Shown: positions 19,301 through 50,075, numbered from the stretch's first letter. The stretch is DNA of 64,000 nt from an uncultured bacterium (GCA_964353855.1 CAYGWX010000005.1:7120-71119), one strand, 5' to 3'. Translations and numbers: made by a program. The notes: generated by a model from the letters alone, not told the origin.

Positions 19301-19424
19301 AATTAGTGTGAAGTTAGCGTGAAATTAGAGAGAAGTTAGTGTTAAATTAGTGTTAAATTAGACTTAAATTAGTGTTAAATTAGACACAACTTAGTGTGAA
19401 CTTGGCGTGAAGATGGCGTGAGGT
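19301..19424. repeat. AT-rich tandem repeat of about 10 units with a 12-bp period (TTAGTGTTAAAT / GGCGTGAAGATG)
   Basis: Direct reading. Lies 170-290 bp upstream of the BNR cargo gene start. The last units grade into the GGCGTGAGGTG form seen elsewhere in the window. Confidence 0.7.
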
Positions 19425-19568
19425 GCTCCTATAGTGCGTTGGTTTACTGTGAGTTATGGCTAAAAGGGGGGAGCTTAAGGGTGGGCTTGAACTTGGAACT
19501 GTCGCTGTAAGTACTTGAAGAAAAATAGGTTGGATTTGTTTAGCGATTGCCGTCAGCTCATTTCAGCC

Positions 19569-22500
19569 CTAAAAGTACGCCCGGACCTCGGCCCTGGCCA
19601 GGACCTGGGGCCGGGCTCCCTCCCGGGTCCTTCCGGAATAGGACACCCGGCCGGTGATGTACTCGTTGAGCTTCATCTCCCCTCCTAAACTGAAGTCGCC
19701 CGAGAACCCCACGGGCCTCTCCGTGATCACGTCCGCGGGCAGGAGCTCTTTGGGAGTCCTGGTCGTCCGGCGGGTGAGCACCCCGCTGAGTTCAAACTGG
19801 CCTTTGGTCGCAAACGTCCGCCTGAGTCCCGGCCTTGCCTGCAAGGCGAACAGCTCCATCTTTCCCAGGTAGGGATAGAAGGCCGGCTCCTCCACCCAGG
19901 TCCACATCGCTCCCGGCGAAAGCCGTATCTCCCAGGGGAGAGACGGCCGGTGCACCCAGCCCGCTCTGAGTGAGCGGTCCAGGACCTTGTTTTCTATCCC
20001 GATCTCCGTGCTCCCGTTCCGCGAAAGGCTCTGGTCTCCAACCAGCTCAAAGGTCGTCCGCTCGGTGGCGGCCACCCGGTAGGTCCCCTCGTGCTCGATC
20101 TCGAACCGTTCCGCATGCCGCCCCTCCACCCGGTTGTCTTCCTCGTCGCTCCTCCGGATGCGGTAGATCCACTCTCCCTGGACCTGCTCCGTCTTCTGGG
20201 AAATACTCAGTCTGGCCTCAAGGTACGTCCTCCCGTACACCGTGGCCTCGTCCCTCTGGAATGTGCCGGGGTTTAGAAGATAAACCTTCAGCCGGTCCTG
20301 CTCCCGGCTCTCCTCCTCTACCGAGGCGAACACGTCCGAGGAGATGGCCGAGAGTCCCGCGCCCCGGCCCAGAAGGATGAGCCTCTGTGAGGCCTTGAGC
20401 GTGGTCACCGGGCTCTCTCCTCCCTGGTCCAGGAGCACCCTTCGCCAGTCCCCTCCCGGAGAGCGGTAGTATCTTCCGGTCGCAGGATCACGACGCCAGT
20501 CCCCCTGTCCCTCGGTAACCTGATAGAACTGCTCGCTCTTGAGCGCCGTGGCCGTGTTGGTGAACTCGTAGCTGGTGTTGGAAGTGAGCGCCCCCTTGCT
20601 CGGGGAATAATCTAACAGGGCCTTTCCCAGTTCGGTTATCACCCCGCTCCCCACCCTTCCCGGCTCCATGACCTTCCTTCTCCGGGTGTAGGACAGGTTC
20701 GTGGAATAGCCCCCGGTTGAGGAAAACCCTGCCGTTCCTCCGTACGTCCGCGTCCTGGAATCCAGCACCCATCCACCGGGCTCATAGACCCTGTCCTTCC
20801 TCAGGCCCCCGGTGAGCTCTCCGGTCAAGCCTCCTCCGGTCTTCGGCCCAAGGCGATAGCCGAGTCCCCCTCCCGGTTCCTCGTACTCGTAGCCAGAGCG
20901 CAGGAGCCCCGCCCCGTATCCGCTCCAGCGCTCATGGGCATAGCTCGCCCTGGGAGTGAGCCACCTGATCTTCTGGCCCAGGGAGTAAAACTGTCTCTCT
21001 CTTCTCCGCTCATTCACCGAATCCGGGGAGGAGGAAAGGGTATCTGCAGACCTGACCAGCTCGGCCTGGGCCTTGACCATCGTGTTTCCGGATAACTCCA
21101 GACCCCCGCTCCGTCTCAGCGCCCAGCGCCCGTCCGTCCGGGAGAGCCTCCCGGCCTCGCCGGTTAGCGACCAATTGGGCCTGGGCTTATAGACCAGGCT
21201 TGCCTCCGCGTCCTTCTGGCCCAGGCCGAGTCCCTGGTCCAGGTTCCACTGATAGCCGTGATCCAGGGACCGTTGCTGATAAAAGGAGGAAAACTCAGGG
21301 GCGACCCAGTTGCCCCTCCCTTTGAACTCCAGATCCCCAAGCCCCTTCCCCGCCAAGTTCATTCTCTTCGGGGTCCAATCCCAGCTTCCCCTGAATGCCT
21401 TTCCTCGGGAGACGTGTCCCGGAAGGTCGCTGAAGGTGTTCCGGTCCCTTCGCGAGGCCGCGAATTCAAAGCTCGCCCCCCCTGCATCCTTCACCTTGTA
21501 ACCCAGGCTGGCGCCCACGAGTTCCATCCGCTCGGGCAGGGGAAGGAATGTCCTCGGGGTGTATTCCCCGGCCCCGTTTCCCACGAAGACATACCCACCC
21601 AGCGTCCCGTCATAGCGGTATTCCCCCCTTCCGGGGCCGACCCGGGAGAAGCTCACCTGATAGTCCCCCCGGGGCCGGCCTGAATAGGTGAAGATGGAGT
21701 CGGTCCGGATATAATCCCCGTTTCCCGGGCCCACATAGCTGGCCCCGGAAATGACCGCTTTCTTGGGGTCCGTGCCCGCCGCCCTCAGGGCCTCCCTGGT
21801 GGAATCGCTCAAGGCGAAGCTCAAGGGCCTCTCCCTCTCATCCTCCTCCCTGAGCCCGGTGAGAACCAGGCTGAGCCTGTCCCTGAGCCCTAGAAGGGTC
21901 TGTCTTCCTCCCGCGAAATTCCTGCGGTACAGGTCGTTGGTGTACTCGAAGTCTGCCGCGATTCTGGACTGGCCCGTGATCAGCCTCCTGGGCGTGAAGA
22001 AGAGCTCCCCGTTGGTGTAGTCTATCGTGTAGTCGTTGTTCTCGCCCCTTCTCAGGAGCTCCCCGTCCAGCCAGACTTTCTCGGTCCCGCCCAGGATCAC
22101 GATCTCCCGGCGCCCGGTCTCGGACGTCAGGGGATAAGGCCCCTGCTTCCCTTCCGTGCCGGAGAATCGGTTCTCCGCGAACCGACCCTTGGGCACGGCA
22201 TAGGCCAGGGTCAGCGTCCCGGGCTTGAAGTTTAGGTCCACCCTCGCCCCCGTCAGGCGGCGCTCCAGCGCGGTCCAGACCCCGTCTTTCAAAGCGAAGT
22301 CGTAGTCCCCGACCAGGGCCTGGCCCCGGTTCCCCCGGACGGCCAGAGAAACCTTGTCTATCTCCTCCAGACGTTCGGTCGTTCCCTCGGGCTGGATGGG
22401 CAGGTTCTCGTCCGACAGGAGCCCCTCCATCTCAACCCCGGACGTCACCTGTCCCGAAAGCGAGAGCCTGAGCGATTGTTCCAGGGAAAGATCCTGCTGG

Positions 22501-22967
22501 GTTCCCACCGAAAGCCCGAAGGTCTTGCTTCCTCCGAACCGGAACTCCGCGGGGTTCTCCGCCCCCGGGGCTTTGGCCTGGCTGTCCGAGACAGCGACCA
22601 GGGCCTGAGCGGTGTCCTCCCTGACCCGGAAGTGCGTGTAGGACCTGTTCATCGAAAAGGGCAGGACCTCGTAGGAGACGACCGCCCTCCGGCTTGCCTC
22701 CAGTCTCCCGGCAAAGTAGATCTCTCCCCGCTCGAAGTCCAAGACATACTCCCGGTCTCGGACAAGAAGACTGTCCCCCTTGCCCTCGGACTTTCGGAGG
22801 ATGCGGACGCTCTCGCTCCCGATCAGGATACGACCCGGGGAAAGGGTATAAGGCCCCGCATCCCCTCGCCCCTCGAGCGTATCGGTCCTCGTCTCCCCCA
22901 GACACAGGGCCGGGAGGACAAGAACCACCAAGAAGAGGAGGACTACCCTATGGTCCTTCCAGATCAT
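19569..22967 (-). CDS. Large (about 1130 aa) outer-membrane beta-barrel protein of unknown family
   Basis: Signal peptide MIWKDHRVVLLFLVVLVLPALCLG. The mature protein is essentially cysteine-free and rich in alternating G/Y/R/S/T beta-strand patterns, and ends in ...VRAYF (aromatic C-terminal residue typical of BAM substrates). Confidence 0.5.
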   Translation of the reverse strand: MIWKDHRVVLLFLVVLVLPALCLGETRTDTLEGRGDAGPYTLSPGRILIGSESVRILRKSEGKGDSLLVRDREYVLDFERGEIYFAGRLEASRRAVVSYEVLPFSMNRSYTHFRVREDTAQALVAVSDSQAKAPGAENPAEFRFGGSKTFGLSVGTQQDLSLEQSLRLSLSGQVTSGVEMEGLLSDENLPIQPEGTTERLEEIDKVSLAVRGNRGQALVGDYDFALKDGVWTALERRLTGARVDLNFKPGTLTLAYAVPKGRFAENRFSGTEGKQGPYPLTSETGRREIVILGGTEKVWLDGELLRRGENNDYTIDYTNGELFFTPRRLITGQSRIAADFEYTNDLYRRNFAGGRQTLLGLRDRLSLVLTGLREEDERERPLSFALSDSTREALRAAGTDPKKAVISGASYVGPGNGDYIRTDSIFTYSGRPRGDYQVSFSRVGPGRGEYRYDGTLGGYVFVGNGAGEYTPRTFLPLPERMELVGASLGYKVKDAGGASFEFAASRRDRNTFSDLPGHVSRGKAFRGSWDWTPKRMNLAGKGLGDLEFKGRGNWVAPEFSSFYQQRSLDHGYQWNLDQGLGLGQKDAEASLVYKPRPNWSLTGEAGRLSRTDGRWALRRSGGLELSGNTMVKAQAELVRSADTLSSSPDSVNERRRERQFYSLGQKIRWLTPRASYAHERWSGYGAGLLRSGYEYEEPGGGLGYRLGPKTGGGLTGELTGGLRKDRVYEPGGWVLDSRTRTYGGTAGFSSTGGYSTNLSYTRRRKVMEPGRVGSGVITELGKALLDYSPSKGALTSNTSYEFTNTATALKSEQFYQVTEGQGDWRRDPATGRYYRSPGGDWRRVLLDQGGESPVTTLKASQRLILLGRGAGLSAISSDVFASVEEESREQDRLKVYLLNPGTFQRDEATVYGRTYLEARLSISQKTEQVQGEWIYRIRRSDEEDNRVEGRHAERFEIEHEGTYRVAATERTTFELVGDQSLSRNGSTEIGIENKVLDRSLRAGWVHRPSLPWEIRLSPGAMWTWVEEPAFYPYLGKMELFALQARPGLRRTFATKGQFELSGVLTRRTTRTPKELLPADVITERPVGFSGDFSLGGEMKLNEYITGRVSYSGRTREGARPQVLARAEVRAYF

Positions 22968-23820
22968 AGATGAGGACCCTGTGGTTTCCGGTGTCCGAGA
23001 CGTACAGTTTCGCCCCGGAGCAGAGCACGAACCCTGGACGGGCAAGCCCTTTGATCTCACCCATCTCCTCCCCGGCCTCAGAGAACGCCACGACCCGGTC
23101 GTGGCCTGTGTCCGCGACCCATATTCTTCCCTTGCCGTCCAGGGCCACGCTCTCCGGGGCTTTGAGTCTTCCCTTCCCGAGGATGCTCTGGGGTTCGCCC
23201 CAGGTGCTGAAGGACTGGATCCGGTTGTTCCCCCATTCCGCGACCCAGAGGGTTTTATCAGGTTCGCTTACCGCCACGCCCATGGGCTCGGAGAGGTTTC
23301 CGAGCCCTGTCCCGAACCCTCCGAACGAGCGTAACAGGCTTCCGGCTCCGGATAGGACCAGGACTCGGTGGCTCCCTTTTTCGCAGACCACCACGTCCCC
23401 GCTTCGGGCGACAACCAGGCCCTGGGGGAGGAATAGGACCTCCTCGGGTTTATAAAAGTCGCCTAACGAGACCCCATAACGGTCCAGACGCATCATCCTG
23501 CTTCCCGGAAGGTCCGAGACCAAAAGGCCCGAGGTCCCGGAGAGCGCCAGTCCGGTGATTCCCCTGAAAAGCCCTTCTCCTGGGATTTCCCTGAGATACG
23601 TCCCCAGGGAATCGAAGGCCTGGACACGGTTGTTGCCCGCATCGGCCACATAGAGCGTTCCGCGCTCATCCAGGGTCAATGCCCCGGGAGAGAAGAACTC
23701 CCCTGGTCCGGTCCCCTTTCTTCCGATCGTGGCCAGAAGCTTCGGGGAGAACGTCCCTCCGGGCATGGCCGGGAGTGGCTGGATGAGGAAGAGATATAGG
23801 CTTAGGAGGATTGCTGACAT
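22948..23820 (-). CDS. NHL-repeat beta-propeller protein with signal peptide
   Basis: Repeated (Y/W)VAD(T/A)GNNR(I/V)Q/F motifs across 6 blades. Start/stop overlap the barrel gene by about 20 nt. Confidence 0.7.
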   Translation of the reverse strand: MSAILLSLYLFLIQPLPAMPGGTFSPKLLATIGRKGTGPGEFFSPGALTLDERGTLYVADAGNNRVQAFDSLGTYLREIPGEGLFRGITGLALSGTSGLLVSDLPGSRMMRLDRYGVSLGDFYKPEEVLFLPQGLVVARSGDVVVCEKGSHRVLVLSGAGSLLRSFGGFGTGLGNLSEPMGVAVSEPDKTLWVAEWGNNRIQSFSTWGEPQSILGKGRLKAPESVALDGKGRIWVADTGHDRVVAFSEAGEEMGEIKGLARPGFVLCSGAKLYVSDTGNHRVLIYDLEGP

Positions 23821-23892
23821 GTCGTTTCGGTCAAAAGGCCGCCCCGATCAAGTCTCGGGACGGCCTTTCATCGTTTGGCCTTTTTTAAGAGG

Positions 23893-25398
23893 TTACCTCA
23901 GAATCGTGAGCCGGCGCGTGGTGTTGAAGGCTGGCTCGCCCCGCTCCCTGGCCTCGAAACGACAGAAATAAACCCCGTTGGGCACCGCGTGTCCTTCTCC
24001 ATCCCGACCGTCCCAGGCCACCCGCTTGCTCCCCGGCGAAGACTCTCCCTCCGCAAGTTTGCGGATCCTCTGTCCCAGACTGTTGTAGACCCAGACCGAA
24101 ACCCAGGCTCTTCGGGGAACCTGGAAGCGGACTTCGGTGCGTTCCCTCATCGGGTTGGGATGGAGGGAAAGGCCGTATTCCGAGGGAATAAGCTGGCTTG
24201 GACCCGCCTCCACCCCGCTTCCCGGCCGGGCCACGAAGCGGTAGGTGATGCTCTCCGGCGCAGCGATCGGGTCCGTGTTCCAGATGTTGATCCCCTTGGC
24301 TACGCTGAAGCTGTCCGTGGCCCAGAGGAAATAGCGGATGGTGCAAGCCTGGGCCACGGAAGGAATCGTGTAGTAGTAACGATTCCCCCGGACGCTATCC
24401 CTGCTGACTCCGTGGTACAGGGTGTCCGGATCCCCGGGCCGCTTGTTGTAGAACAGCGAGTCCCGCCAGACTCCTCCGCTGTAGGTCGCGGTATCCGTAA
24501 TCGTGCTCGCCACACTGAACGGTCCTGAGAACTGGGTGTCCGGCCAGACCGTGGAGTTGGCGAAGTCCGGAAGGTAGAAGTTCCAGGGCCGACCGCTGAC
24601 CGTGTCCGCGGCCTGGATCCGGCGTTGCAGGAACATCTTGTCTACGACCACGAAGTTACTGTCCGCGCCGTTGGCCCCCATGACCGCGGCCACCCCGTTC
24701 CCCCCGCAGAACCGCCCGGGCGTGTCCCACTCGTAGATCACCCGGGTCTCGTTGGTCCCGAAGTTGTCGGTGAAAGTGTAGCGGTCGCGCAGGATGACGC
24801 AGGGCCAGAACTTGTTCCCGCTGAAGGGAACCTTGACCTTCCCACGACCCACGATCCTCTTGCGGTGTCCCTCGTTAAGTTCGTAGGGGAATCCCCCTAA
24901 GTCGTAGGACGCGGTGACGATCCGTTGCCAGCTGTCTCCGGGGCGCATCGGGAAGCGGTACATATCTACCCCCGGGGAAGGTTTGTAAACCATAAGAAAC
25001 CTGAATCCCCCCTGCTCCTGGTCGAAGCCCATGTTCCAGGTGGCGAAAGTATCCCGGCGTTCATAGACCCAGCTTTCCACCCCGGAGAGGGTATCCAACT
25101 CCACGAGCTGGGCCGTGGGAAAGGAATCCGGGGCCGGGGGCCTTCCCTGGGTGCGAGGTCGTAGGGAGGCCGGGACGCGGACCACGCCCGGCCAATTCAA
25201 CGTATCCGCGCACAGGTCCCAGACCCGCCGGTTGGGGTTGAACTCGTCCCAGAAGAACTGGTCCGAGTTCTGCATGTAGTCTCCGGAGACCCCGCGGAGG
25301 AAGGGTTGGGTTGTCCAGATCGTGAAGTTGTTATAACCTCCCGCCAGGGCCCCGTGGGCGCAGGCGAGAACGAGAAGGGTTCCCAAGACTGTACGCAT
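23893..25398 (-). CDS. Secreted protein of unknown function with T9SS C-terminal sorting domain
   Basis: C-terminus ...VWVYNSLGQRIRKLAEG...GVYFCRFEA...RLTILR is por_Secre_tail-like. Signal peptide after the internal M (MRTVLGTLLVLACAHGALA). Confidence 0.6.
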   Translation of the reverse strand: MRTVLGTLLVLACAHGALAGGYNNFTIWTTQPFLRGVSGDYMQNSDQFFWDEFNPNRRVWDLCADTLNWPGVVRVPASLRPRTQGRPPAPDSFPTAQLVELDTLSGVESWVYERRDTFATWNMGFDQEQGGFRFLMVYKPSPGVDMYRFPMRPGDSWQRIVTASYDLGGFPYELNEGHRKRIVGRGKVKVPFSGNKFWPCVILRDRYTFTDNFGTNETRVIYEWDTPGRFCGGNGVAAVMGANGADSNFVVVDKMFLQRRIQAADTVSGRPWNFYLPDFANSTVWPDTQFSGPFSVASTITDTATYSGGVWRDSLFYNKRPGDPDTLYHGVSRDSVRGNRYYYTIPSVAQACTIRYFLWATDSFSVAKGINIWNTDPIAAPESITYRFVARPGSGVEAGPSQLIPSEYGLSLHPNPMRERTEVRFQVPRRAWVSVWVYNSLGQRIRKLAEGESSPGSKRVAWDGRDGEGHAVPNGVYFCRFEARERGEPAFNTTRRLTILR

Positions 25399-25414
25399 CT
25401 CCTGTTCCTCCTTT

Positions 25415-26191
25415 CTAAAAGCCTCTTCCCACGGACAGAGAAACCCCGGGTTCAAGGTCCGGAGCCATGCCCAGCCTCCATTCCCAACGCTCCGGGGCTG
25501 CGCTCAAGCTCCGGTTGTGCTTGCCAGCAACCCGGGCCGCGTCCAGTCCCGACAGGATGCGGTGCACGATGGCCCATCCCATCACGTAGCTCGCCCGGTG
25601 CCTTGCCTCCAGGCTCCTGAGCCTCTGGTCCCGATAACTGAACCAGGCCGCTTGGTCTCTCCAGGCCCAGGTCCGGTCCCCGGAGTAAATCCGCGTGTTG
25701 ATGTATTCCTCCTGCTTCGCCTTGTCGTTGGGATACTGCTCCCGGGCCTCGCGGCGGATCCACTCGTTGGCCGAGTCGCTGGAGAAGAACTGCCCCAGAT
25801 CCTTGAAGTACTGGTCCGGTGCCCCGGAGGGATTCGTGCTCGCGTTGCCTGCGGCGAAAGCGGTATACCCGCCCCGGAGAATTCCCTCCTGGGATTTGCT
25901 CACCAGGAAATAGGTCCACAGACCGGCTTCTATCGTAAAATAGAGCTTGGCTGCTCCCTTGGACTCTGCATACCACTGCCCCATCCCCGGCAGAACCAGG
26001 GAGTAAAGCATGGCCCGCTTGGGCGACTTCCAGCCTGCGGGGTGGCCCGGAAGAGCAGGTTCCTTCATCTTAAGGGTATCATTTTCCTGAACCAGAAGGA
26101 GCGAATGGGATTCCAAGTAGAGGCCGGATGCTTTCGCTGCAGAAGGAAGTAACCCGACCGCAACGATCAGCAGGATAATCTTCCTCATCAT
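25415..26191 (-). CDS. Hypothetical secreted/periplasmic protein
   Basis: Signal peptide MMRKIILLIVAVGLLPSAAKA. No domain recognised with confidence. Confidence 0.4.
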   Translation of the reverse strand: MMRKIILLIVAVGLLPSAAKASGLYLESHSLLLVQENDTLKMKEPALPGHPAGWKSPKRAMLYSLVLPGMGQWYAESKGAAKLYFTIEAGLWTYFLVSKSQEGILRGGYTAFAAGNASTNPSGAPDQYFKDLGQFFSSDSANEWIRREAREQYPNDKAKQEEYINTRIYSGDRTWAWRDQAAWFSYRDQRLRSLEARHRASYVMGWAIVHRILSGLDAARVAGKHNRSLSAAPERWEWRLGMAPDLEPGVSLSVGRGF

Positions 26192-26196
26192 CGCTC

Positions 26197-29481: not shown

Positions 29482-29651
29482 GCGCTTTCCTCATTATTAG
29501 CTATGAAATTAAAAAGTTCCCTTCTGGCTTTTAAAGTGGCCCTGAGACACGCTATCAAGGCTGCAACAGATCATGGGTTTGTATCGGCTTGCTATCGTGG
29601 CACTTAGGCCATGCCGGTTAAAGCGGTTATGCCTAAAGACATCTTTCTATG

Positions 29652-29683
29652 GCTAAAAACACATCACTAACTGTGTTTTTAGC
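29652..29683. promoter_or_regulatory. Perfect 12-bp-arm inverted repeat GCTAAAAACACA-N8-TGTGTTTTTAGC upstream of the M6 protease gene
   Basis: Read directly. AT-rich stem (not a GC terminator) about 170 bp upstream of the 29481 start, so a candidate operator. Confidence 0.4.
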
Positions 29684-29696
29684 TAACAGGATGTGG

Positions 29697-29737
29697 GGAG
29701 GGCGTGAAGTGGGCGTGAAGTGGGCGTGAGGTGGGCG
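29697..29737. repeat. 3.5 tandem copies of the 12-bp unit GGGCGTGAAGTG
   Basis: Read directly. 215-255 bp upstream of the M6 protease start. Confidence 0.7.
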
Positions 29738-29953
29738 GAAACCCCTCTTGGATTGCGGAGCTTTGTTGGCCCTCCCCCTCGGGAGCTTGTCCCGTCGGAG
29801 GACGGGATAACTGAGCTTTGTCTGCCCTCTTTACGCGCGAAAGTTAAAGCCTCCGGCTTGCCCCGGATTTTTCGGAACCTGCCCACCACCCGCTCTAAAC
29901 CCGGATGAACCTGAAAAGGAACCCGACTCACTGAAGGTTCCTTTTCGTTTGCT

Positions 29954-35867: not shown

Positions 35868-36022
35868 CGCAACCTTTCAAGCGCAAGATAGTTATTATAA
35901 ACGAAAGGAACTCTAAAGTCAATAGCCTAAGGATATGTTCCTGCGGGATTTGACGCAATCGCTTGACTTCTATGGCGTTACAGCGAAACATCCTTGCGGC
36001 CTTCTTCGCCTTCATTCCCCTG

Positions 36023-36051
36023 TGATCCCACCCCGTAGGGGTGGGATCACG
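36023..36051. terminator. Perfect 13-bp-arm GC-rich hairpin GTGATCCCACCCC-gta-GGGGTGGGATCAC
   Basis: Read directly. 136 bp downstream of the PAP2 gene stop at 36187 (the end of the rnf-tatC operon), about 180 bp upstream of the PorQ-like gene. No clear U-tract. Confidence 0.45.
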
Positions 36052-36075
36052 GATCAGCAACCCGCCTCGGAGCTG

Positions 36076-36146
36076 AGGGAGGTAACAGGGAGGGATCAGG
36101 GAGGAAAGAGGGAGGGATGTGGGCGTGCAATGGGCTTTTAATGGGG
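36076..36146. repeat. Four tandem 11-bp AGGGAGGnnnn units followed by a GTGGGCGTGCAATGGG motif
   Basis: Read directly. 210-280 bp upstream of the PorQ-like gene. The GTGGG(C/T)GT(G/T)CAATGGG motif recurs at 50059-50075. Confidence 0.65.
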
Positions 36147-36186
36147 GAGCGGTGGGCGTTCAACCCTCCCTCACACCTCCTCTCCT

Positions 36187-37514: not shown

Positions 37515-37518
37515 CGCT

Positions 37519-38481: not shown

Positions 38482-38491
38482 GTCACCTTTT

Positions 38492-39064: not shown

Positions 39065-39659
39065 GGCGCCTGACCCTCCCCAGGAATCCCAAGCCTAACC
39101 CGACCACAAGAAACGCACCAAAAGGCAGAGCGAAGCCCGAGGCCGCATGGGTATGCCATTTCTCGCCCAAGATCGGGAACCCCCAGACCGTTCCCAGGCC
39201 TAAAAGCTCGCGCAGGAAGCTCATCGCGATCATGAGCCCGCTGAATCCGAGGCCCATCCCCAGCGCGTCCACCGCCGAATGACCAGCCGTCTGGTGCCTG
39301 GCGAAGGCTCCGGCCCTTCCCAGAACGATCTCGTTCACGGCTAAAAGGGGAAGGAATATCCCCAGGCGCATCGCCAAACCGCCCCACAGGGCATGGGTGG
39401 CCGCTTGAGCCAGAGCCGTGTAGACCGTGGCGACGATGATGAACGCCGTCAGCCGATAATGGGCTCCGAGGAACGCCCGAAGGAGGGAAACCGTGAGGTT
39501 TGTTGCCAGGAGCACGGCCACCAGGGCTGCGGAAATGAGTGCCGCTTCTCTGAGGGTGGTCGAGAGGGCCAGTAGTGGACAGAGCCCGGCGATGCCCCGA
39601 ATCAAGGGGTTCTCGGAAAAGAATCCTTTGGTCAATATCTCGCCCGAGGTTAGCTTCAT
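39057..39659 (-). CDS. RnfE-like membrane subunit
   Basis: NPLIRGIAGLCPLLALSTT matches the RnfE/NqrD GLCPLLA motif. Six-TM profile. Confidence 0.6.
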   Translation of the reverse strand: MKLTSGEILTKGFFSENPLIRGIAGLCPLLALSTTLREAALISAALVAVLLATNLTVSLLRAFLGAHYRLTAFIIVATVYTALAQAATHALWGGLAMRLGIFLPLLAVNEIVLGRAGAFARHQTAGHSAVDALGMGLGFSGLMIAMSFLRELLGLGTVWGFPILGEKWHTHAASGFALPFGAFLVVGLGLGFLGRVRRRA

Positions 39660-40576: not shown

Positions 40577-40577
40577 T

Positions 40578-41867: not shown

Positions 41868-41936
41868 CCCGACAGACCGATGCCCTCCGGAAGGCGATGT
41901 TCCAGAGGGCGTTCCGTAATTCGCGGATCTCTCATC

Positions 41937-42392
41937 TTACTTATGTTTCTCTAACAGCCTGCGCAGTTCCTCCATGAACTCCTTGCTGTCCTTGAAGGAG
42001 CGGTAGACCGAGGCGAAGCGGACGTAGGCCACGCCATCCAAGTCCTTCAGGGCTTCCATGACCAGTTCCCCCACCTCCTGGCTCGTGACCTCGCTTTTGC
42101 CCGTGGCGGTCAGCTCCCCTTCCACGCTCTCCACGATCTTCTCCAGGGCGTTGATTCCGATCGGCCGCTTCTCGCAGGCCTTCCGCATGCCCCGCAGCAG
42201 CTTCTCCCGGTCAAAGGGCTCCCGCCTTCCATCCTTCTTGACCACCACCAGGGGTGGCTCCACGTACTCGTAGGTCGTAAAGCGCCGCTTGCAGGAGAGG
42301 CATTCCCGCCGGCGGCGGATGGCGTCTCCGTCCCGGGACAGCCGGGAATCGATCACCCGGTCCTTCTGGAATCCGCAAACCGGACAGCGCAT
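41937..42392 (-). CDS. nrdR: Transcriptional repressor NrdR
   Basis: MRCPVCG...C zinc ribbon plus ATP-cone. The track's 44-aa N-terminal extension was trimmed. The ATG overlaps the upstream stop by 1 nt. Confidence 0.85.
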
Positions 42393-42871
42393 TACTTGGC
42401 CTTCGGCTTGAACAGCTCCACCTTGAGCTTCGCCTCCTTGAGTATCTGTCGGGAGAGCTCGTCGGGGTACCCTTTCCGTACCACGATCCTCTTGATCCCT
42501 GCGTTGATGACCATCTTCGTGCACAGGACGCAGGGGTGATGCGTGGAATAAAGCGTCGCGCCCTGGATGTTCACGCCCGAGGTCGCCGCCTGAATGATGG
42601 CGTTCTGCTCGGCATGGATGGCCCGCGAGACCTCATGCCTTTCTCCGGAGGGAACGCCCAGGCGATCCCGTAGGCAGCCCCCCAATTCATCGCAGTGCAG
42701 CAGCCCGGCCGGCGGGCCGTTGTATCCCGTGGCCAGGATCCTCTTGTCCTTGACCAGGAGGGCCCCCACCGACCGGCGCAGACAGGTGGAACGCCGGGAC
42801 ACGAGGTCGGTGATGCCCATGAAATACTCGTCCCAGGAGGGTCTACCGTCTGTTTTCTTGCTTCGCTTCAA
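42392..42871 (-). CDS. dCMP/CMP deaminase (ComEB-like), zinc-binding
   Basis: HAEQNAI and [15 protein letters not shown] motifs. Confidence 0.85.
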
Positions 42872-42877
42872 AAAGGC

Positions 42878-43288
42878 CTATCTCGGAGGCAGGCCTGCCC
42901 CCTCCTGGAAGGAGAGCTCCCCTTTGACCTCGGTCAGGCAGTCCGAGAGCACGTTCATCTGGTGCAGGGCGATGGTCTCCTCCAGGGCCTGGCGGGCGAT
43001 CAGCCCCATATCCACCAAGATGTCCCCCAGGCGTGTGGCCCCGGCGGACTCTCGCTGCTTGCTCAGGGCCTGCTTGAGCTGCTCGCGGTCGATCTTCCCG
43101 GCCTCGGTCAGGATGTCCCCGATGAGCTTCTTCCTCTCGTCCGAGGAAAAGCTTACCACCTCCCCGTGGGCGAAGGCCACGTGCTCGCATACCTCCGCGC
43201 TCTCGATGGTCAGGGTCCCTGTCCAGCGCTCGGCCTTGGCTTTGGAAACCACTTCGTTGAAGGTCATCAGTCCCAACTTCTTTGCCAT
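42878..43288 (-). CDS. DUF4388-like domain followed by two tandem T2SSE_N/MshEN-like motifs
   Basis: WTGTLTIESAEVCEHVAFAHGEVVSF (DUF4388 pattern), then KKLIGDILTEAGKIDREQLKQALSKQ and TRLGDILVDMGLIARQALEETIALHQ, which follow the RLGxxLxxxGxxxxxxLxxxLxxQ motif. Start trimmed to MAKKLG after the glyA stop. Confidence 0.45.
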   Translation of the reverse strand: MAKKLGLMTFNEVVSKAKAERWTGTLTIESAEVCEHVAFAHGEVVSFSSDERKKLIGDILTEAGKIDREQLKQALSKQRESAGATRLGDILVDMGLIARQALEETIALHQMNVLSDCLTEVKGELSFQEGAGLPPR

Positions 43289-43304
43289 GATAGCCTCCTC
43301 CCTC

Positions 43305-44558
43305 TTATAGGCGGTTGGCGTAGAGAGGAAAATGTCTGCAGAGCGACCCGACATCGCTCTTCACCTCGGTCGCAACCTTCTCATCTCCGGGATGAGAAAG
43401 CACCTTGTCCAACAAGCCGGCGATGGCGACCATCTCGGGTTCCTTCATGCCCCGGGTGGTCAGGGCCGGGGTGCCCAAGCGGATCCCGCTCGTCACCGTG
43501 GGCTTCTGGGTTTCAAAGGGCACGGTGTTCTTGTTCACCGTGATCCCGGATGCCCCCAGGACGTCCTCGGCCTGCTTTCCGGTGATCCCCTTGGTCGTGA
43601 GGTTCACGAGCAGGAGGTGGGTGTCAGTTCCCCCCGAGACCAGGTGGTAGCCCCGCCGTTTCATCTCCTCGGCCAGGGCCCGGGCGTTCTTCACCACCTG
43701 GGACTGGTAGGTCTTGAACTCCGGCTCCAGGGCCTCCTTCAGGGCCACGGCCTTGGCCGCGATGCAGTGCATCAGGGGTCCGCCCTGCATCCCGGGCATC
43801 ACGGTCCGGTCCACATCCTTGGCGTACTTCGCCTTGCACATAATCATCCCGCCACGCGGCCCCCGCAGGGTCTTGTGCGTGGTCGTGGTCACGAGGTCGG
43901 CGTAGGGGACCGGGGAGGGGTGCAGGCCGGTGGCGACCAAGCCGGCGATGTGGGCGATGTCCACCATGAGCGTGGCCCCCACCTCGTCGGCGATCTCCCG
44001 GAACTTGGCGAAGTCCAGGGTCCGGGGATAGGCGCTGGCCCCGGCCAGGATCATCTTGGGTTTGTGGACCTGGGCCATTTTGCGGAGCTCGTCGTAGTCG
44101 ATGGTCTCGGTCCGCTGGGACACCCCGTAGGAGATGCAGTTGTAGAACTGGCCGGAGAAGTTCACCTTGTACCCGTGGGTCAGGTGCCCGCCGTGGGAGA
44201 GGTCCAGGCCGAGGAAGGTGTCCCCCAACTTCAGGAGGACCATGTAGGCCGCCATGTTGGCCTGGGCCCCGGCGTGGGGCTGGACATTGGCGTGGTCGCA
44301 CCCGAAGAGCTGTTTGGCCCGCTCCCGGGCAAGGTTTTCGGCCACGTCTACGAACTCACACCCTCCGTAGTAGCGCTTTCCGGGAAGCCCCTCGGCGTAC
44401 TTGTTGGTCATCACCGAGCCCAGGGCCTCCAGGACCGCGTCGGAGACGAAGTTCTCCGAGGCGATGAGCTCCAGGCCGTCGGCTTGGCGCCGGGTCTCAT
44501 TTAGGATGGCCTCGTAAATGTCCGGATCGTACTGTCTCAGGGGCAATGAATTCATCAT
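43305..44558 (-). CDS. glyA: Serine hydroxymethyltransferase
   Basis: Full-length SHMT with the [14 protein letters not shown]-lysine motif. Confidence 0.95.
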
Positions 44559-44568
44559 ACCTCCAGGG

Positions 44569-45018
44569 CTATCTTTCGATCTGTTTTATTTTATCGATCC
44601 TTCTCCCGTGCCGCCCGCCCTCGAAGGAAGAGTCCAGCCAGGCCTCGGCGATCACCTTGGCGGTCTCCTCGGAGACGAAGTCCGCGGCCAGGACGAGCAC
44701 ATTGGCATCGTTGTGCGCCCGGGCCAGCCGGGCCATCTCGGGAGAGAAGCACAGGGCGGCCCGGATGCCCTTCACCTTGTTGGCCGACATCGCCATGCCG
44801 TTCCCTGTGGCGCACATCAGGATCCCCTGGAAGGCCTGGCCCCCGGCCACGGCCTGGGCCGCCGGGATCCCGTAGTCCGGGTAATCGCAGGACTCCTGGC
44901 TGTTCGTGCCGAAGTCCTTGACCTCGTAGCCCTTGGACATAAGCAGGGCCTTCAGGGTTTCCTTGAGGTGGAGCCCCTGATGGTCCGCGGCCAGAGCGAT
45001 GAGCTTGCCTTTATCCAT
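44569..45018 (-). CDS. rpiB: Ribose-5-phosphate isomerase B (RpiB/LacAB family)
   Basis: 149 aa with the [17 protein letters not shown] motif. Confidence 0.85.
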
Positions 45019-45027
45019 AACCTTTAA

Positions 45028-45056
45028 AGTATAAAGGATTTCCCATATTTTTTCAA
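45028..45056 (-). promoter_or_regulatory. Near-consensus sigma70 promoter (TTGAAA-17-TATACT) driving rpiB-glyA-...
   Basis: On the minus strand, TTGAAA is the reverse complement of 45051-45056. A 17-nt spacer follows, then TATACT (reverse complement of 45028-45033), then AAGG and the ATG about 9 nt downstream. Confidence 0.5.
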
Positions 45057-45167
45057 GGGGAAAAGGTGCCCCTGGTGTCTATAAAAGAGGGCAAGGGCAA
45101 GGACATCGGATGATCAATAGAAATCAGAGGAGAATATCAGCTAACTTACGCCCCGGGAATGGCGCGA

Positions 45168-45962
45168 TCAAACCTCTGCCAACTCTCCGCGAAAGATCGT
45201 TACGGCTTCTCCGCCTAATCGCACCCGATCCCCCTCGACGCGGACCCGCACCATCCCTCCCCGGGCTGAAGCCTGATAGGCTACCATCTCTTTCTTGCCC
45301 AGACGTCCTATCCAGAACGGCCCCAGACAGCAGTGCGCGGACCCGGTCACCGGGTCCTCCGGAACTCCGGCCCCGGGGGCAAAGAACCGCGACACGAAAT
45401 CAAATCCCGGTGTGGAGGCCATGCTCGTGACGATGACTCCCCGAACTTCGATCCGCTTGAGCTTTTCGTGATCGGGCTTGAGCCTCCGGACCATCTCTTC
45501 CGATTCCACCTCCACGAGGTAGTCGAACCGGCTCTTGCCCACCGTCTTGGGGACCACCCCCAAGGCCTCGCTCAATCCCTTCGGTGCCTTCGCCGGAGAA
45601 GGGGGTGTGGCCGGGAAATCCAGCTCGATCTCCTCCCCCACCTTCCGGGCCGTGAGCAGGCCGCTTTTGGTGTGAAACCGCGCCTCCTTGTCCCCCGCCA
45701 GCAGGCCGGCCTCCCAGAGCACATGGGCGCTCGCCAGGGTCGCATGCCCGCAGAGGTCCACCTCCACCGCCGGGGTGAACCAGCGCAGGCCGTAACCATC
45801 CTCCCGGGGAACGAGAAAAGCCGTCTCGGAGAGGTTCATCTCCCGGGCCACGTTCTGCATCCAGCCCACCTCCCGCTCTTCGGGAAGCAGACAAACCCCG
45901 GCCGGATTCCCGGCAAACGGCTTCTTCGTGAAGGCATCCACCTGATAGATTTTTATTCCCAT
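45168..45962 (-). CDS. PhzF-family (phenazine biosynthesis-like) isomerase/epimerase
   Basis: MGIKIYQVDAFT..PFAGNPAGV N-terminus and DAP-epimerase-like fold signatures. Confidence 0.8.
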   Translation of the reverse strand: MGIKIYQVDAFTKKPFAGNPAGVCLLPEEREVGWMQNVAREMNLSETAFLVPREDGYGLRWFTPAVEVDLCGHATLASAHVLWEAGLLAGDKEARFHTKSGLLTARKVGEEIELDFPATPPSPAKAPKGLSEALGVVPKTVGKSRFDYLVEVESEEMVRRLKPDHEKLKRIEVRGVIVTSMASTPGFDFVSRFFAPGAGVPEDPVTGSAHCCLGPFWIGRLGKKEMVAYQASARGGMVRVRVEGDRVRLGGEAVTIFRGELAEV

Positions 45963-46164
45963 TAAGAAACTCTAAATGTCCGCGCAATGCTACGATGCAA
46001 GCCTTTCTGGTCCTCCTTGGAAATCAGGGGCAACCACTATATATTGTGGTCCCCTCGGAATTGTCTCGTAAGCAGCGCCGATAAAGCTCGGTTACGTCTG
46101 TTGAACCAAAACAGCCCGCAGAATGGGGATCTCCGAAAGGCCTCCGAAATCCGAGAGGGGTTCC

Positions 46165-46212
46165 CGCCTACCTCACGCCTACCTCACGCCTACCTCACGC
46201 CTACCCCACCCC
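46165..46212. repeat. 3 tandem copies of CCTCACGCCTAC (reverse complement GGCGTGAGGTAG)
   Basis: Read directly. Opposite orientation to the copies at 29697 and 47495. Confidence 0.7.
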
Positions 46213-46214
46213 CT

Positions 46215-46275
46215 TTTGGATACCCGACCACTATATATAGTGGGTGTTCCCTTTTTCACAATGAACGGCTGATTT
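46215..46275. repeat. Copy B of a 55-60 bp repeated element whose core is the perfect palindrome CCACTATATATAGTGG
   Basis: CCGACCACTATATATAGTGGGTGTTCCCTTTTTCACAATGAACGGCTGATTTTGGAGG. Related copy A lies at 46024-46060 and copy C at 46915-46975 (CCGACCACTATATGTTGTGGTGGTCCCCTATTTCACAAGGAGAGGCTGTTGTGAG). Confidence 0.7.
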
Positions 46276-46334
46276 TGGAGGTTGAGCCAGTGGATTAGAA
46301 CAAACATGCGTCGTGCTTATTTGCACCTAAAGTT

Positions 46335-46787
46335 CTATTCGGTTATTCTTAAGATAAATACACCCTTCGGATCAACCTGTTTTACTATTTCAAATACATG
46401 TTCTTTCTCGGGCTGTTTTGTCGAGTAAGAACGTCCATCCCTCGTATTCAAGTCGACGGTGCCATCGTGAGACGTGGTGACTGCAAACACTTTCCCTTCC
46501 ATTATTAATTGTTTCGCTTGGTACCATTCTATTTTCTCTTTTGGGGAATTGCGAACGATCTGCCAAAAAAAGGGGCGTAGAAAGGAGAGGTCAGAGAACG
46601 CAAGCAAGATTCGATGAGAATCACGTAAAGCCTCTTTCTCACGCTGGGTTATTGCAAGCTCATTAGATTTAAAACAGGGGACTAGTTGATCAACAAATTC
46701 GTCTGCCGGCATTTTCTTCGGATTCTCAGCCATCGCGATGCAAACGAATCCTATAAAGAAGGAAACTACCAAAGGCAACCGCATCAT
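46335..46787 (-). CDS. Hypothetical secreted protein encoded in a low-GC (about 40%) cassette
   Basis: Signal peptide MMRLPLVVSFFIGFVCIAMA. Codon usage and GC differ sharply from flanking DNA. Flanked by repeat copies B and C. Confidence 0.5.
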   Translation of the reverse strand: MMRLPLVVSFFIGFVCIAMAENPKKMPADEFVDQLVPCFKSNELAITQREKEALRDSHRILLAFSDLSFLRPFFWQIVRNSPKEKIEWYQAKQLIMEGKVFAVTTSHDGTVDLNTRDGRSYSTKQPEKEHVFEIVKQVDPKGVFILRITE

Positions 46788-46859
46788 TTTACACCTCCTG
46801 AGATAATAACCAGTTCAATTATCTAATGCCGCATGGCATGCATCGCTGGCGATGCTCTT

Positions 46860-46915
46860 CCTCCAAATAATCATCCCCAAAAGCAACATGATCACCCCAA
46901 CGGTCTTCAAACCCC
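46860..46915. pseudogene. About 55-bp relic fragment of the lspA 3' coding end (about 90% identical to 50278-50335)
   Basis: ctcttcctccaaataatcatccccaaaagcaacatgatcaccccaacggtc aligns with ctcttcctccaaataaccatccccaaaagcaacataatcacccccacggtc inside lspA (codons VTVGVIMLLLGMVIWRK). Same orientation. Confidence 0.7.
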
Positions 46916-47380
46916 GACCACTATATGTTGTGGTGGTCCCCTATTTCACAAGGAGAGGCTGTTGTGAGATAAATCATAGCATAATCAGCCCCATAAGGAC
47001 AAGGGGGCAGGCAGGAGCGGGAAGAAACCCGTTGCCATCTTCGGTTCGACAAAAAGGTCAGGGCTAAGAGCCCTGGCCCAAAGGAGGAGGCGATCCGGTC
47101 AGGATGCTCCCCCCATCCACTCCCGCTCTTTTCACCGGCATTGCACTGGCTTTACCCCGGCTTTACACCCTCTTTACACCCATTTAGCACCCTTCGGGAG
47201 GCTATACAAGGAGAGATCGTGCTGCGTGCGCCCGGAAGAGAGGCTTCGGAAGGATTTAGATCGGCACCAGTCTACTGATCGGATGTCGTCTGCCAACAGA
47301 AGGATGTCTGCATCTCCGTTAAAAGCCAAGGGGTTCCCCTTGTACAAGAGACACCCCTATGGCCTTTCTGATGTTACAAG

Positions 47381-49666
47381 CTACCTCACCACCACCATCT
47401 TTCTGGTGAGGGTCTGATCACAACCTTCGGCCCTCAGAAAGTAAACCCCGCTCCTCACCTCCTTTCCACTTCCATCTTTTCCGTCCCAATACACCTCGTG
47501 AGGCGTAAGGCGTGAGGCGTAAGGTGCAAACGACCTTACGACCCGGCCCGTAACATCGTAAACGCTCAGACGAACCGGCCCCAGAGCCACTGGCCCGAGT
47601 CGAATCGTACATCCCCCTTTTACCGGATTAGGGCTGATCGAAACATCAAATGACTCGGCCTTAAATGGATGGGCAACTTCCTGACCGACCCCGGATATGA
47701 TGGAATCCACGCCGAAGACCAGAAGATTTCCCAGATAGGCTCCGCCATAAGCTACGTTGAAGTTCTCGCCCCAGACATCCGTAATCGTCCAACCAGATTC
47801 ATAATGCCGGACAGACTGCGCCGGGTGAGGATTGCTTACATCCACCAGGTCCATCCGTCCACAGTATTCCACGGACTGATAATAATAGGTTCGCCCCCCT
47901 ACCCAGACATAGTGAGGGGCGAAGTAATGCAGCCCATACAGGGCATCCTCCCCGATTGAATGACTATACCATCCCGCTGTATCCGGACGCACCGGGTTGG
48001 CTACGGTAATGATATAGAGCCCATCCCCAGGATTCCGGAAATAGGCTAAGATATAGCCCAAGGTATCCGCAAACTCTACGTCTTTTCCGCCAGGTGCAGG
48101 CCAGTCCCAGTCATATGCGTTGCGCGGACTACGCGGATCGCTCACATCAATCACATGAAACGTCCAAGGCAACCCGTCCGGCACATAGGCGTATTGCCCA
48201 CGAACCCACAAATCGTAAACTCCATCGCCAGGACCCCGCCACCTCCCTAAAAAGTAGGGATTCCGGGGATCCGCCACATTCACAGTCCACAAATTGTCAC
48301 CGAAATGTCCCGAAAGATAGACCAGCGTGTCCTGCACAAAGATGCCGTAGGCCACCCCGGTCTGCAATCCAGACCAGCGCCCGATCACCGTAGGCTGGGC
48401 CGGATTCCGAATGTCCACAATAACCAGTCCGCTATCTCCCTCGGCGGCGTAAAGCAGAGAGTCCTTCAACATGATGTCAAGCGTCCTCCAGGGTATCTCC
48501 AAGTGGCCAAGCTCAACAGGCTGAGAGGGGTTAGACACATCCAGCACCCGAAGCCCGTCCATGCCGTGGGCCACATAGAGATAATTCCCCTGCTTCACCA
48601 ACTCCCAGCAGGCATCCCCGGTAGGATAATGAGTAATCTCCCGAGGCTGGGAAGGATTTCGAACGTCCATCACCCGAAGGCCCTTGCCGCCGTCGGCAAA
48701 GTAGACCAAACTGTCTTTGGCAAAGACATCACCCCCTGAGCCTGGTGTCTCGTAACGACCCAGCTCAACAGGATTTGCCGGATCTGTGATATCAATAACC
48801 CACATGTGGCTGAGACTGCTTGGGGGATAACGATCATATTCAAAATAGTCCTCGCAGAGGTAAGCAAGGTTGCCAGAGACGGTAACGCTGCGAGGAAAGA
48901 CATATTGACCGCTGGGACGGAAGCATTTTATTTTCAGAGGGACTTGGGGATTCTTTACGTTTACTATACAGAGGCCGCTATCCAATGCCGCAACATAAGC
49001 TAGCGTATCACGGATGATGAGATCCATCGTACCACCAAGCCCCGTACATCGTCCCACTTTACGAACATCAAAGGGATCGCGGATATTATACACTGCGAGT
49101 TCAGAAGTCCACCCCGCACCGACAACATAAGCCAGCGTGTCCACCACTTGTATTTTCTTCCCCCAACTGGTATCGTAACCCGCTACCACAAAGGGAGAAG
49201 CAGGGTCGTTCACATTGATCACGAACAAATCCGAGGAATCCTGCATCCCACCGCTCCCAACTACGTATGCGAGAGAATCTTTAACCCAAACTCCATGCAT
49301 ATGATACCCGCACCTCACCTTCCCCACCACCCTCGGAGCCCTCACATCCCGCACATCCACAATCGCCAGACCGTTATAAGCATCTACCAGATAGGCATAG
49401 CCGTTCTGGACGAAGAGGTCCTCTATGATGGAGAAATTCACATCATACGCCCTGCCCATCTCCACAGGATTCGCCGGGTCCGAAACATCCAAAATAAGCA
49501 GGCCGCAGCTCACTCCCACATAGGCGTAGTCCCCTTGCACCACTACCTGACGGGCAGGGCCTAAGAGGGTCTGGCCCAAAAGCCGCATCCCCAGGCTGTC
49601 CCGAGGGAAAGCCGAGGAAGTTCCTGCAATGCAAACAAGGACAAAGATTAAAAATAGGATGCGCTT
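47381..49666 (-). CDS. LVIVD-repeat beta-propeller protein with T9SS C-terminal sorting domain
   Basis: At least 12 repeats of G(L)x(I/V)(V/I)D(V)S(N/D)PxxP. C-terminus ...GVYFLRAEG...KMVVVR. Signal peptide MKRILFLIFVLVCIAGTSSA after the internal start; the track's longer start is 49735. Confidence 0.75.
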   Translation of the reverse strand, partial: KRILFLIFVLVCIAGTSSAFPRDSLGMRLLGQTLLGPARQVVVQGDYAYVGVSCGLLILDVSDPANPVEMGRAYDVNFSIIEDLFVQNGYAYLVDAYNGLAIVDVRDVRAPRVVGKVRCGYHMHGVWVKDSLAYVVGSGGMQDSSDLFVINVNDPASPFVVAGYDTSWGKKIQVVDTLAYVVGAGWTSELAVYNIRDPFDVRKVGRCTGLGGTMDLIIRDTLAYVAALDSGLCIVNVKNPQVPLKIKCFRPSGQYVFPRSVTVSGNLAYLCEDYFEYDRYPPSSLSHMWVIDITDPANPVELGRYETPGSGGDVFAKDSLVYFADGGKGLRVMDVRNPSQPREITHYPTGDACWELVKQGNYLYVAHGMDGLRVLDVSNPSQPVELGHLEIPWRTLDIMLKDSLLYAAEGDSGLVIVDIRNPAQPTVIGRWSGLQTGVAYGIFVQDTLVYLSGHFGDNLWTVNVADPRNPYFLGRWRGPGDGVYDLWVRGQYAYVPDGLPWTFHVIDVSDPRSPRNAYDWDWPAPGGKDVEFADTLGYILAYFRNPGDGLYIITVANPVRPDTAGWYSHSIGEDALYGLHYFAPHYVWVGGRTYYYQSVEYCGRMDLVDVSNPHPAQSVRHYESGWTITDVWGENFNVAYGGAYLGNLLVFGVDSIISGVGQEVAHPFKAESFDVSISPNPVKGGCTIRLGPVALGPVRLSVYDVTGRVVRSFAPYASRLTPHEVYWDGKDGSGKEVRSGVYFLRAEGCDQTLTRKMVVVR

Positions 49667-49988
49667 CATTTGAAATGCTCCCATTGATGCAAAAGGAGAC
49701 CTATGCCCCTTTCTCAGGGGTGTCTCCTTTCTCATCTTCCAGCTTCAACCCGACCGAACCGAACCATCCGAACCACATCTTCACCTAACCCTCCTCAACC
49801 GAATAAGGAGCCCGAAAGCCAACTCACGGAAGAGAAACGATGGTGCGCTGCTTGCCTGGCTGTTAAAGCATAACAAATTCAGGCGGCGACGTCAAGCTCA
49901 AAATCAACGAAGGCAGATAAATCCCTTGAAATGAGTGCTCAATTATATACTTCCATCCCCAATCCGCATTAAAAAACCCCTGAAATAC

Positions 49989-50075
49989 GTGGGGTGGGTG
50001 TACAGTGGGTGTTTGGTGGGTGTTCAATGGGTGTTCAATGGGCCCCCAAAACGAAGGTCTGGGTGGCCCATAGGA
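49989..50075. repeat. Tandem 12-bp GGTGGGTGTTCA / ATGGGTGTTCA repeats
   Basis: Read directly. 320-400 bp upstream of the LVIVD cargo gene. Confidence 0.65.

Follow-up and report, generated by a model that had tools for sequence, protein, structure and literature searches.

Short repeats of several kinds are known from bacterial DNA. MIRU of mycobacteria, BOX of pneumococcus and REP/BIME of enterobacteria are interspersed intergenic families with units of 35-100 bp, and the TAAA tract of meningococcal nadA is a distal-promoter repeat in which a change of spacing tunes expression. SARP operators have a repeat layout of a heptamer plus 4, and Rho utilisation (rut) sites are C-rich, G-poor and unstructured stretches of about 70-80 nt on the transcript, which are not exact tandem repeats. 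In this study, we analysed 64 kb of DNA from an uncultured bacterium (GCA_964353855.1, CAYGWX010000005.1:7120-71119; this whole stretch of 64,000 nucleotides is called the window), together with about 140 kb from close relatives, and we describe a family of tandem-repeat arrays with an 11-bp unit in its long intergenic spacers. Repeats of this length are recorded in the PHO-box direct-repeat units (DRus) of Streptomyces PhoP, which are 11-nt direct-repeat operators whose spacing is strictly 11 nt and whose units number up to 6-8 (PMC2275107), in the CarH operator, which has three 11-bp repeats (PMC9304148), and in parC of plasmid R1, where two sets of five 11-bp repeats are bound by ParR (PMC2241845).

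A lag-autocorrelation scan, in which at least 24 matches were required in a 33-bp sliding window at lags of 4-25 bp, was employed in parallel with Tandem Repeats Finder. Lag 11 gave six regions in the window (19301-19423, 29684-29747, 36072-36127, in register to 36163, 46152-46219, 47130-47195 and 49989-50051), the remaining lags gave 0 or 1 region each except for the 22-bp harmonic, and a 21-bp lag region was recovered at 12893-13093. With the same test, no lag-11 region was found in 1.21 Mb (80 loci) of other FCB-group genomes. The six intergenic arrays with an 11-bp period are real and far beyond chance, and both programs bore out the tandem arrays at the six loci listed in an earlier annotation made from this DNA alone (the sequence-only reading). 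The period given there was 11-12 bp; 11 holds and 12 does not, since the 12-letter units include one base of the next unit, and the period is exactly 11 bp, or about one helical turn. The arrays, including two related ones that fall outside the range covered by that reading, are as follows.

19301-19423, plus strand: A19 array, 11 units of 11 bp, AT-shifted AATTAGTGTTA grading into TGGCGTGAGGT.
29684-29747, plus strand: A29 array, three to four copies of GGGCGTGAAGT plus edge units.
36072-36163, plus strand: A36 array, 8 in-register units, AGGGAGGnnnn four times and then four units of the TGGGCGTGCAA type.
46152-46219, minus strand: A46 array, three full AGGCGTGAGGT units plus edge units, the G-rich strand being the minus strand.
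47121-47198, minus strand: A47 array, about 7 units of the GGGTGTAAAGA type, the G-rich strand being the minus strand.
49987-50054, plus strand: A50 array, 4.5 copies of GTGGGTGTTCA, 252-319 bp upstream of the LVIVD start codon.
12896-13094, no strand assigned: related 21-bp (two-turn) array, nine copies of CCACTCACCTGAGTGAAGCCG, with the palindrome CACTC-N4-GAGTG in every unit.
16772-16829, no strand assigned: weak array of about 10 bp period, three copies of TCATTACTAT, with the BNR stop codon on one side and two strong hairpins on the other.

On the G-rich strand the arrays have the unit skeleton T-G-G-G-Y-G-T-K-M-A-R in common, the terminal units of A19 are 87% identical to the A29 array, and the half-site GAGTGAAG of the 21-bp array is similar to GCGTGAAG of the 11-bp units. 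The sequence-only reading had noted a shared motif that it could assign to no described element, and both points were upheld: among the Rfam 15 covariance models, tRNA-Met alone reached its gathering score in the window, and at a permissive threshold no match below E = 0.68 was obtained for 45.9-47.45 kb. The tRNA scan returned nothing relevant to the arrays, neither the unit pair nor the A29/A46 flank had a match in the viral contigs scanned, and no dispersed 11-bp tandem repeats were described in the literature searched. Across A19, A36, A47 and A50, about 90 substitutions from the unit consensus were counted and no phase-breaking insertion or deletion (indel). The whole-turn period, kept through degenerate units, is the sole property common to all arrays and thus points to a constraint on double-stranded DNA. 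One further candidate listed in the sequence-only reading, 47495-47527 on the minus strand, was rejected; it has a period of 7/14 and is coding sequence for the C-terminal sorting domain of the LVIVD protein (peptide ...SFAPYASRLTPHEVYWDG...), and therefore is not a family member.

The 11-bp arrays all lie in spacers flanked by co-directional minus-strand genes, as identified by Pfam scans. Between 12.8 and 50.3 kb, every one of the eight spacers of at least 290 bp carries an array (six 11-bp, one 21-bp and one weak 10-bp array); the remaining apparent gaps are coding (HicAB, NHL, DUF2279, Rnf and GATase), so that every spacer of at least 290 bp holds an array of helical period. The reading that we favour, tentatively and with a little less than even confidence, is that these are lineage-specific interspersed 11-bp tandem-repeat arrays of long spacers, which are resized by slippage and probably act at the DNA level.

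Syntenic relatives were obtained by a metagenome scan and exact-protein look-ups and have about 94, 91, 88, 80 and 77% DNA identity to the window. Array length differences among relatives of 77-94% identity were found to be exactly 11 or 44 bp. In the 88% relative (contig L085) A29 is shorter by exactly one unit, 29703-29713 being missing, and in a 77% relative (L087) the A29 position ahead of the M6 protease gene has a short spacer and no array. Inside A36, L090 has 44 bp fewer (four units) and L087 has 11 bp fewer (one unit). The variation of unit number that the sequence-only reading had proposed to check thus exists, by one unit at A29 and by one and four units at A36, and since it exists between close relatives, dynamics of the slipped-strand type are real. 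These whole-unit length changes fit replication slippage or unequal exchange. The A36 site of L085 has a wholly unrelated spacer with an 11-bp array of its own (CTCCTAAATTA, 2.5 copies) and a layout like that of the window: a stop codon, the pyrimidine-rich array, a hairpin with a CUACG loop and the conserved promoter. In the window A36 starts 24 bp past the PAP2 stop codon and is followed by this structure:

36022-36050, minus strand: hairpin with a 13-bp stem and a CUACG loop, no U-tract after it, 3' of A36 and PAP2.

In L087 the stem of this hairpin carries a compensatory change, L085 has an entirely different stem, and the CUACG loop is kept in all. Contig L092 contains a new 11-bp array (TGCACCTGGCT, 5.3 copies), located between a stop codon and a UUCG-loop terminator upstream of rpiB. 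Inside each array the units are homogenised, whole arrays are gained, lost and overwritten between relatives, and turnover is quick. The region 46265-50260, comprising a hypothetical gene, A47, the LVIVD gene and A50, is an insertion; lspA and phzF are adjacent in L096 (77% relative), and a 51-bp copy of the lspA 3' end at 46855-46905 (matching 50290-50340) marks one insertion junction. A 55-bp segment with the hairpin CCCGTCGGAGGACGGG at 29775-29829 is absent in L085 and present in L086, and short GCCCTC direct repeats stand at its bounds. Arrays of 11/12 bp in L094 (80% relative) were considered as family members, found to be arms of long terminator hairpins and excluded. That contig has two paralogous long terminator hairpins at 6880-7010 and 8010-8130, in spacers of an rnf-tatC operon, with arms made of GGTTRCG / CGYAACC units followed by a T-run.

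The A46 array belongs to a longer element. A profile search with the A46 region identified a single full module copy per genome in the window, L093, L098 and L096, as well as two partial matches in the window.

46020-46257, minus strand: conserved module of about 240 bp, full copy; the others are L093 1086-1347, L098 11696-11957 and L096 14999-15261.
46228-46243: first palindrome, CCACTATATATAGTGG, overlapping a promoter-like site.
46034-46049: second palindrome, at the module end opposite the first.
29681-29842, inverted with respect to A46: partial module copy, a decayed paralogue that includes A29.
46913-46961, minus strand (46903-46959 in the profile search): solo fragment of the palindrome/promoter-like part, upstream of a gene for a 150-aa hypothetical protein.

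Its order is the palindrome with the promoter-like site, a G-run, three CGTGA-core units, GGAAACCCC... and the second palindrome. The promoter-like site reads TTGTGA-16-TATATA by eye, and the scan gives GTGAAA-18-TATAGT at 46259-46230. In all four genomes a distance of exactly 194 bp separates the two CCACTATATAtaGTGG palindromes, and in L098 and L096 paired compensating +1/-1 indels retain it. Column identity of the module is 83% over 268 columns, compared with about 77% for the coding DNA of L096. The A46 units read AGGCGTGAGGT in the window, AGTCGTGAAGT in L093, and CGGCGTGAGTA and TGGCGTGAATA in L098; the CGTGA core is invariant down to the 77% relative, and the non-core positions differ between genomes and agree within each genome, a pattern that indicates concerted evolution. 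The inverted arms of the module are 32 nt long and 78% complementary, so that the terminal inverted repeats of a MITE are present, and inspection by eye of 46010-46019 and 46258-46267 showed no target-site duplication. The module stands downstream of phzF in L096 and upstream of phzF in the window, and the likeness of A29 and A46 extends beyond the array. The consensus RNA structure consists of palindrome-palindrome pairing only, with a covariation term of -0.44. Judged from these alignments, the module is evidently constrained in length and core sequence, its three CGTGA-core units are most likely a real regulatory device, and its palindromes may represent a pair of promoter or operator sites that face each other. 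The longer, labile arrays would then probably be expansions of the unit of the CGTGA module.

The genes and signals around the arrays are as follows; promoter and terminator calls are consensus matches only.

A19 neighbours: an unannotated open reading frame (ORF) of 1163 aa upstream; the BNR/Ycf48-like gene, 16953-19133, downstream.
A29 neighbours: a PorV-like gene; the M6 protease gene with a Por_Secre_tail domain.
A36 neighbours: PAP2; a PorV/PorQ-like gene.
A46 neighbours: the 150-aa hypothetical gene; phzF.
A47 neighbours: the LVIVD cargo gene; the 150-aa hypothetical gene.
A50 neighbours: lspA; the LVIVD gene.
21-bp array neighbours: a GAF-GGDEF gene and pilT, two plus-strand genes whose spacer the array fills.
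35922-35894, minus strand: promoter of the PorV/PorQ-like gene, sigma-70-like, TTGACT-17-TATAAT, without any difference among four relatives.
19173-19144, minus strand: sigma-70-like promoter TTGACA-18-TATGAT of the BNR gene.

The placement of the 19301 array upstream of the BNR gene was right, with the 1163-aa ORF on its other side. The start codon of the next minus-strand gene lies 170-320 bp downstream of each array, a measurement in keeping with the distance of a few hundred base pairs given earlier. Near-consensus sigma-70-type promoters adjoin the start codons, and the arrays are therefore 130-250 bp upstream of the -35 elements (128-250 bp between A19 and the BNR -35 element). A47 is flanked by two terminator-like hairpins. 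The 1163-aa ORF (19569-23060, minus strand) is conserved in L085 and L087 and has no Pfam domain at E < 0.01, and a HicA/HicB toxin-antitoxin pair at 14310-14720 is inserted between two PilT-like ATPase genes. A protein of 363-373 aa is encoded between mutS2 and dnaG-rpoD (62900-63991, minus strand; L096 304-1425; L101 5592-6713), and combines a domain like the alpha-CTD of RNA polymerase with the helix-turn-helix of sigma-70 region 4 and a winged helix at its C-terminus; it is conserved in relatives and, from this domain composition, appears to be an unusual multi-domain DNA binder.

The sequence-only reading had interpreted the arrays as enhancer-like sites for sigma-54 bacterial enhancer-binding proteins (bEBPs), or as phase-variation tracts, which jointly control the expression of cargo of the type IX secretion system (T9SS). 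This explanation, which we consider very improbable, draws on the co-orientation of A19, A29, A36 and A50 at 170-320 bp upstream of the BNR, M6-CTD, PorV/PorQ-like and LVIVD-CTD genes and on the differing unit numbers between relatives. Its premise is right for those four of the eight window arrays, which do have a T9SS-related gene next to them; of the other four, one each stands before phzF, pilT, the small hypothetical gene and a gene without annotation, the two separate arrays at new sites in relatives lie ahead of rpiB and of an SBP_bac_5/TonB gene, and long-spacer genes in the window are mostly cargo genes anyway. Nor are the G-rich copies uniformly on the plus strand as had been stated: orientation is mixed, the arrays ahead of phzF and of the 150-aa hypothetical gene being opposite to the others. 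L087 lacks the M6 array, and L085 has an unrelated array in place of the PorQ-like one. A scan for TGGCAC-N5-TTGCW with at most 2 mismatches yielded 15 matches versus 19.5 expected, no minus-strand match to this -24/-12 promoter was located between any array and its start codon, and the genes have sigma-70-like promoters; furthermore, the arrays are direct repeats of 4-11 units and not the inverted repeats, usually paired, that are typical of bEBP sites. As for phase variation, the changing unit number stands, but the tracts are not in ORFs or promoters, and with the arrays 130-250 bp upstream of -35, outside both, classical phase variation is unlikely. The T9SS/sigma-54 reading, with its common regulation of cargo genes, is largely refuted; a tie of the arrays to T9SS genes is not supported, and there is no link to gene class.

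Among described systems, the winged-helix operators of the OmpR/PhoB type are closest in form, with head-to-tail direct repeats, exact 11-bp spacing, several units per site and, by eye, a conserved core with variable positions. Read on the reverse strand, the units are TTCACGCC, TTTACACC and TTAACACT, and their cores TTCAC, TTTACA and TTAACA resemble the GTTCAY and TT(A/T/C)ACA boxes, the latter being a box consensus of such operators. Known boxes, however, adjoin or replace the -35 element, whereas the arrays are 128-250 bp upstream of good -35 hexamers; the boxes accumulate point mutations and stay conserved among relatives, whereas the arrays consist of near-identical, recently duplicated units whose number varies; and the arrays have up to 11 units, locus-specific cores and no cognate regulator found among the genes of the window. 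Plasmid iterons and R1 parC likewise have runs of 5-10 near-identical 11-bp direct repeats, which in parC form a one-face platform for cooperative protein binding, but the arrays are chromosomal, recur at many loci within 64 kb and have neither par nor rep genes beside them in the window. With MIRU, BOX and REP the arrays have in common intergenic dispersal, often after stop codons, a variable unit number, mixed orientation and restriction to a lineage. They differ in that the unit is 11 bp, one turn, without small ORFs, and in that the 11-bp units are non-palindromic and without hairpins, palindromic units being found in the 21-bp array only. The nadA tract is similarly a tandem repeat upstream of the core promoter that varies in number between strains, but the unit of the arrays is a full helical turn, so that phase would be preserved and not altered, and no flanking operator pair is known for the arrays except in the A46 module, whose length is fixed.

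The lineage itself appears to be deep-branching within the FCB group, judging from its SHMT (73% identity to Zixibacteria sequences) and IleRS (59% identity to WOR-3/TA06 sequences). Nearer sequences comprise a handful of metagenome contigs (JGI Ga03152xx and a few ENA/Logan assemblies). The best match to the S8 peptidase among the GTDB genomes scanned had 40% identity, and therefore no close genome is present there; the loci retrieved were reused as the 1.2-Mb negative control. A homologue search with the BNR protein gave no orthologue above 49% identity and hence no help on A19, and an exact look-up of the LVIVD protein found it not on record. Every Logan contig from the exact-protein look-ups ends inside an array, and these contigs are therefore uninformative on copy number. 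The ends of L001, L002, L083, L084, L086, L100 and L102 (short-read k-mer assemblies of ERR3804373/4 and one JGI contig) lie inside or adjoin arrays; assemblies thus stop in or at arrays, and metagenome-assembled genomes (MAGs) of the lineage will be fragmented at these sites.

A possible but less than likely alternative is that the arrays are functionless, minisatellite-like DNA: an ancestral 11-bp array on a dispersed or mobile module would have been copied to spacers and drifted through slippage and homogenisation where the spacers are least constrained, and the period would be inherited and not selected. The partial inverted paralogue at A29, the relocation of the module in L096 together with its 32-nt inverted arms, the relatedness of units across loci and the loss, resizing and overwriting of arrays among relatives all accord with this. 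So do the more numerous and longer arrays of the window genome compared with its relatives, the usual position of the arrays after a stop codon or terminator and ahead of the next promoter, and the general enrichment of prokaryotic intergenic DNA in tandem repeats (PMC12418385). Against it, A19, A36, A47 and A50 have only the unit in common with the module, the module ends lack a visible target-site duplication, the register survives heavy substitution, and an unrelated 11-bp array arose at the A36 site in L085; moreover, constraint on one member or more is indicated by the 194-bp spacing, which compensating indels preserve, and by the unvarying CGTGA cores. An inherited period without function would thus explain most facts, but not the module constraint or the retention of register. 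Quite unlikely, in our judgement, is a role at the RNA level, in which C-rich, G-poor, unstructured tracts of 3' untranslated regions (3'-UTRs) with an 11-nt period would serve as Rho-loading (rut) sites or as seed/anti-Shine-Dalgarno motifs before a stabilising hairpin. Contacts of Rho would likewise be spaced 11 nt apart. The sense strands of A19, A29, A36 and A50 are 27-50% C and 7-16% G, run for about 60-120 nt after stop codons and resemble rut sites in being unstructured, as the arrays are predicted to be; a stable hairpin follows about 10-45 nt after the array in seven of nine cases. A36 and its L085 replacement are both located between the stop codon and a hairpin (no U-tract) and have a pyrimidine-rich sense strand, and the A36 units CCCUCCCU would be similar to the anti-Shine-Dalgarno sequence. 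The sense strand, however, is of opposite composition in other arrays (G-rich in A46 and A47, purine-rich in the 16.7-kb array), A29 lies past a canonical intrinsic terminator, and either orientation is open to after-the-fact rationalising. Among the sense-strand spacer folds, the A36 hairpin alone is robust, A19 being no better than shuffles (z = -0.14). An RNA-level role thus fits four or five arrays and the array-then-hairpin layout, and fails on the orientation of the others. Formation of G-quadruplexes or R-loops by a G-triplet every 11 nt is hardly credible: GGG does recur every 11 nt in A29, A36, A47 and A50, with near-canonical G3-N1-8 runs in A36, but A19 and the L085 and L092 arrays have no G-triplets, 8-nt loops are poor for quadruplex formation, and the flanking-gene transcripts carry the C-rich strand for four of the six 11-bp arrays.

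We therefore return to the favoured reading, slippage-resized arrays that probably act at the DNA level. The arrays would act, or be tolerated, as double-stranded DNA because whole-turn units hold flanking sites in helical register. The G-triplet face would be the same on every turn, with an A-rich patch half a turn off, and such a one-face layout would suit cooperative head-to-tail protein binding or bending, by analogy with the winged-helix 11-bp direct-repeat operators. Any effect of the long arrays would be a tuning of distance and curvature and not on/off switching. Several results weigh against a functional role of this kind. Loss and replacement of arrays among close relatives speak against an essential role, and the uniform period could be explained by common descent from one dispersed element without function. 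The relatives cover about half of the arrays, with no orthologous sequence for A19, A47, A50 or the 12.9-kb and 16.7-kb arrays. A permutation test of core and spacer columns (7+4) gave p = 0.10-0.78 per array and was not significant in any single array; the core-plus-variable pattern is visible by eye in the first part of A36 (A36a), in A50 and in the A46 orthologues, where CGTGA is invariant. In a wedge model, the predicted curvature gave a mixed picture, with high values for A19, A47 and the 16.7-kb array and for no other. The unit cores are too divergent between arrays for one sequence-specific protein, the distance of 130-250 bp from the predicted -35 is unlike that of known activator boxes, Pfam scans found no winged-helix response regulator (Trans_reg_C) encoded in the window, and no binding-protein candidate for the arrays was identified.

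A more far-reaching idea, which we regard as unlikely, is that the arrays are iteron-like sites on which an oligomeric DNA-binding protein specific to the lineage would load, covering one face of nearly every long spacer as a genome-wide insulator, terminator or nucleoid-organising system; unit and protein would co-evolve by way of concerted evolution, and the 194-bp module would be the most constrained form. If a protein does bind, 11-bp direct-repeat recognition would extend from single operators to genome-wide architecture. The arrays are a lineage-specific variant, not described before, of the interspersed variable-number repeats, and a unit of one helical turn defines them; the tempting but unsupported link to type IX secretion is removed. 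In practical terms, all k-mer assemblies of the organism break at the arrays, which would also be ready variable-number markers for strain tracking in sediment populations. With a unit of one helical turn as its sole invariant, and with essentially every long spacer of a deep, uncultured lineage occupied, the family would offer a natural experiment on the helical phasing of regulatory DNA in bacteria.

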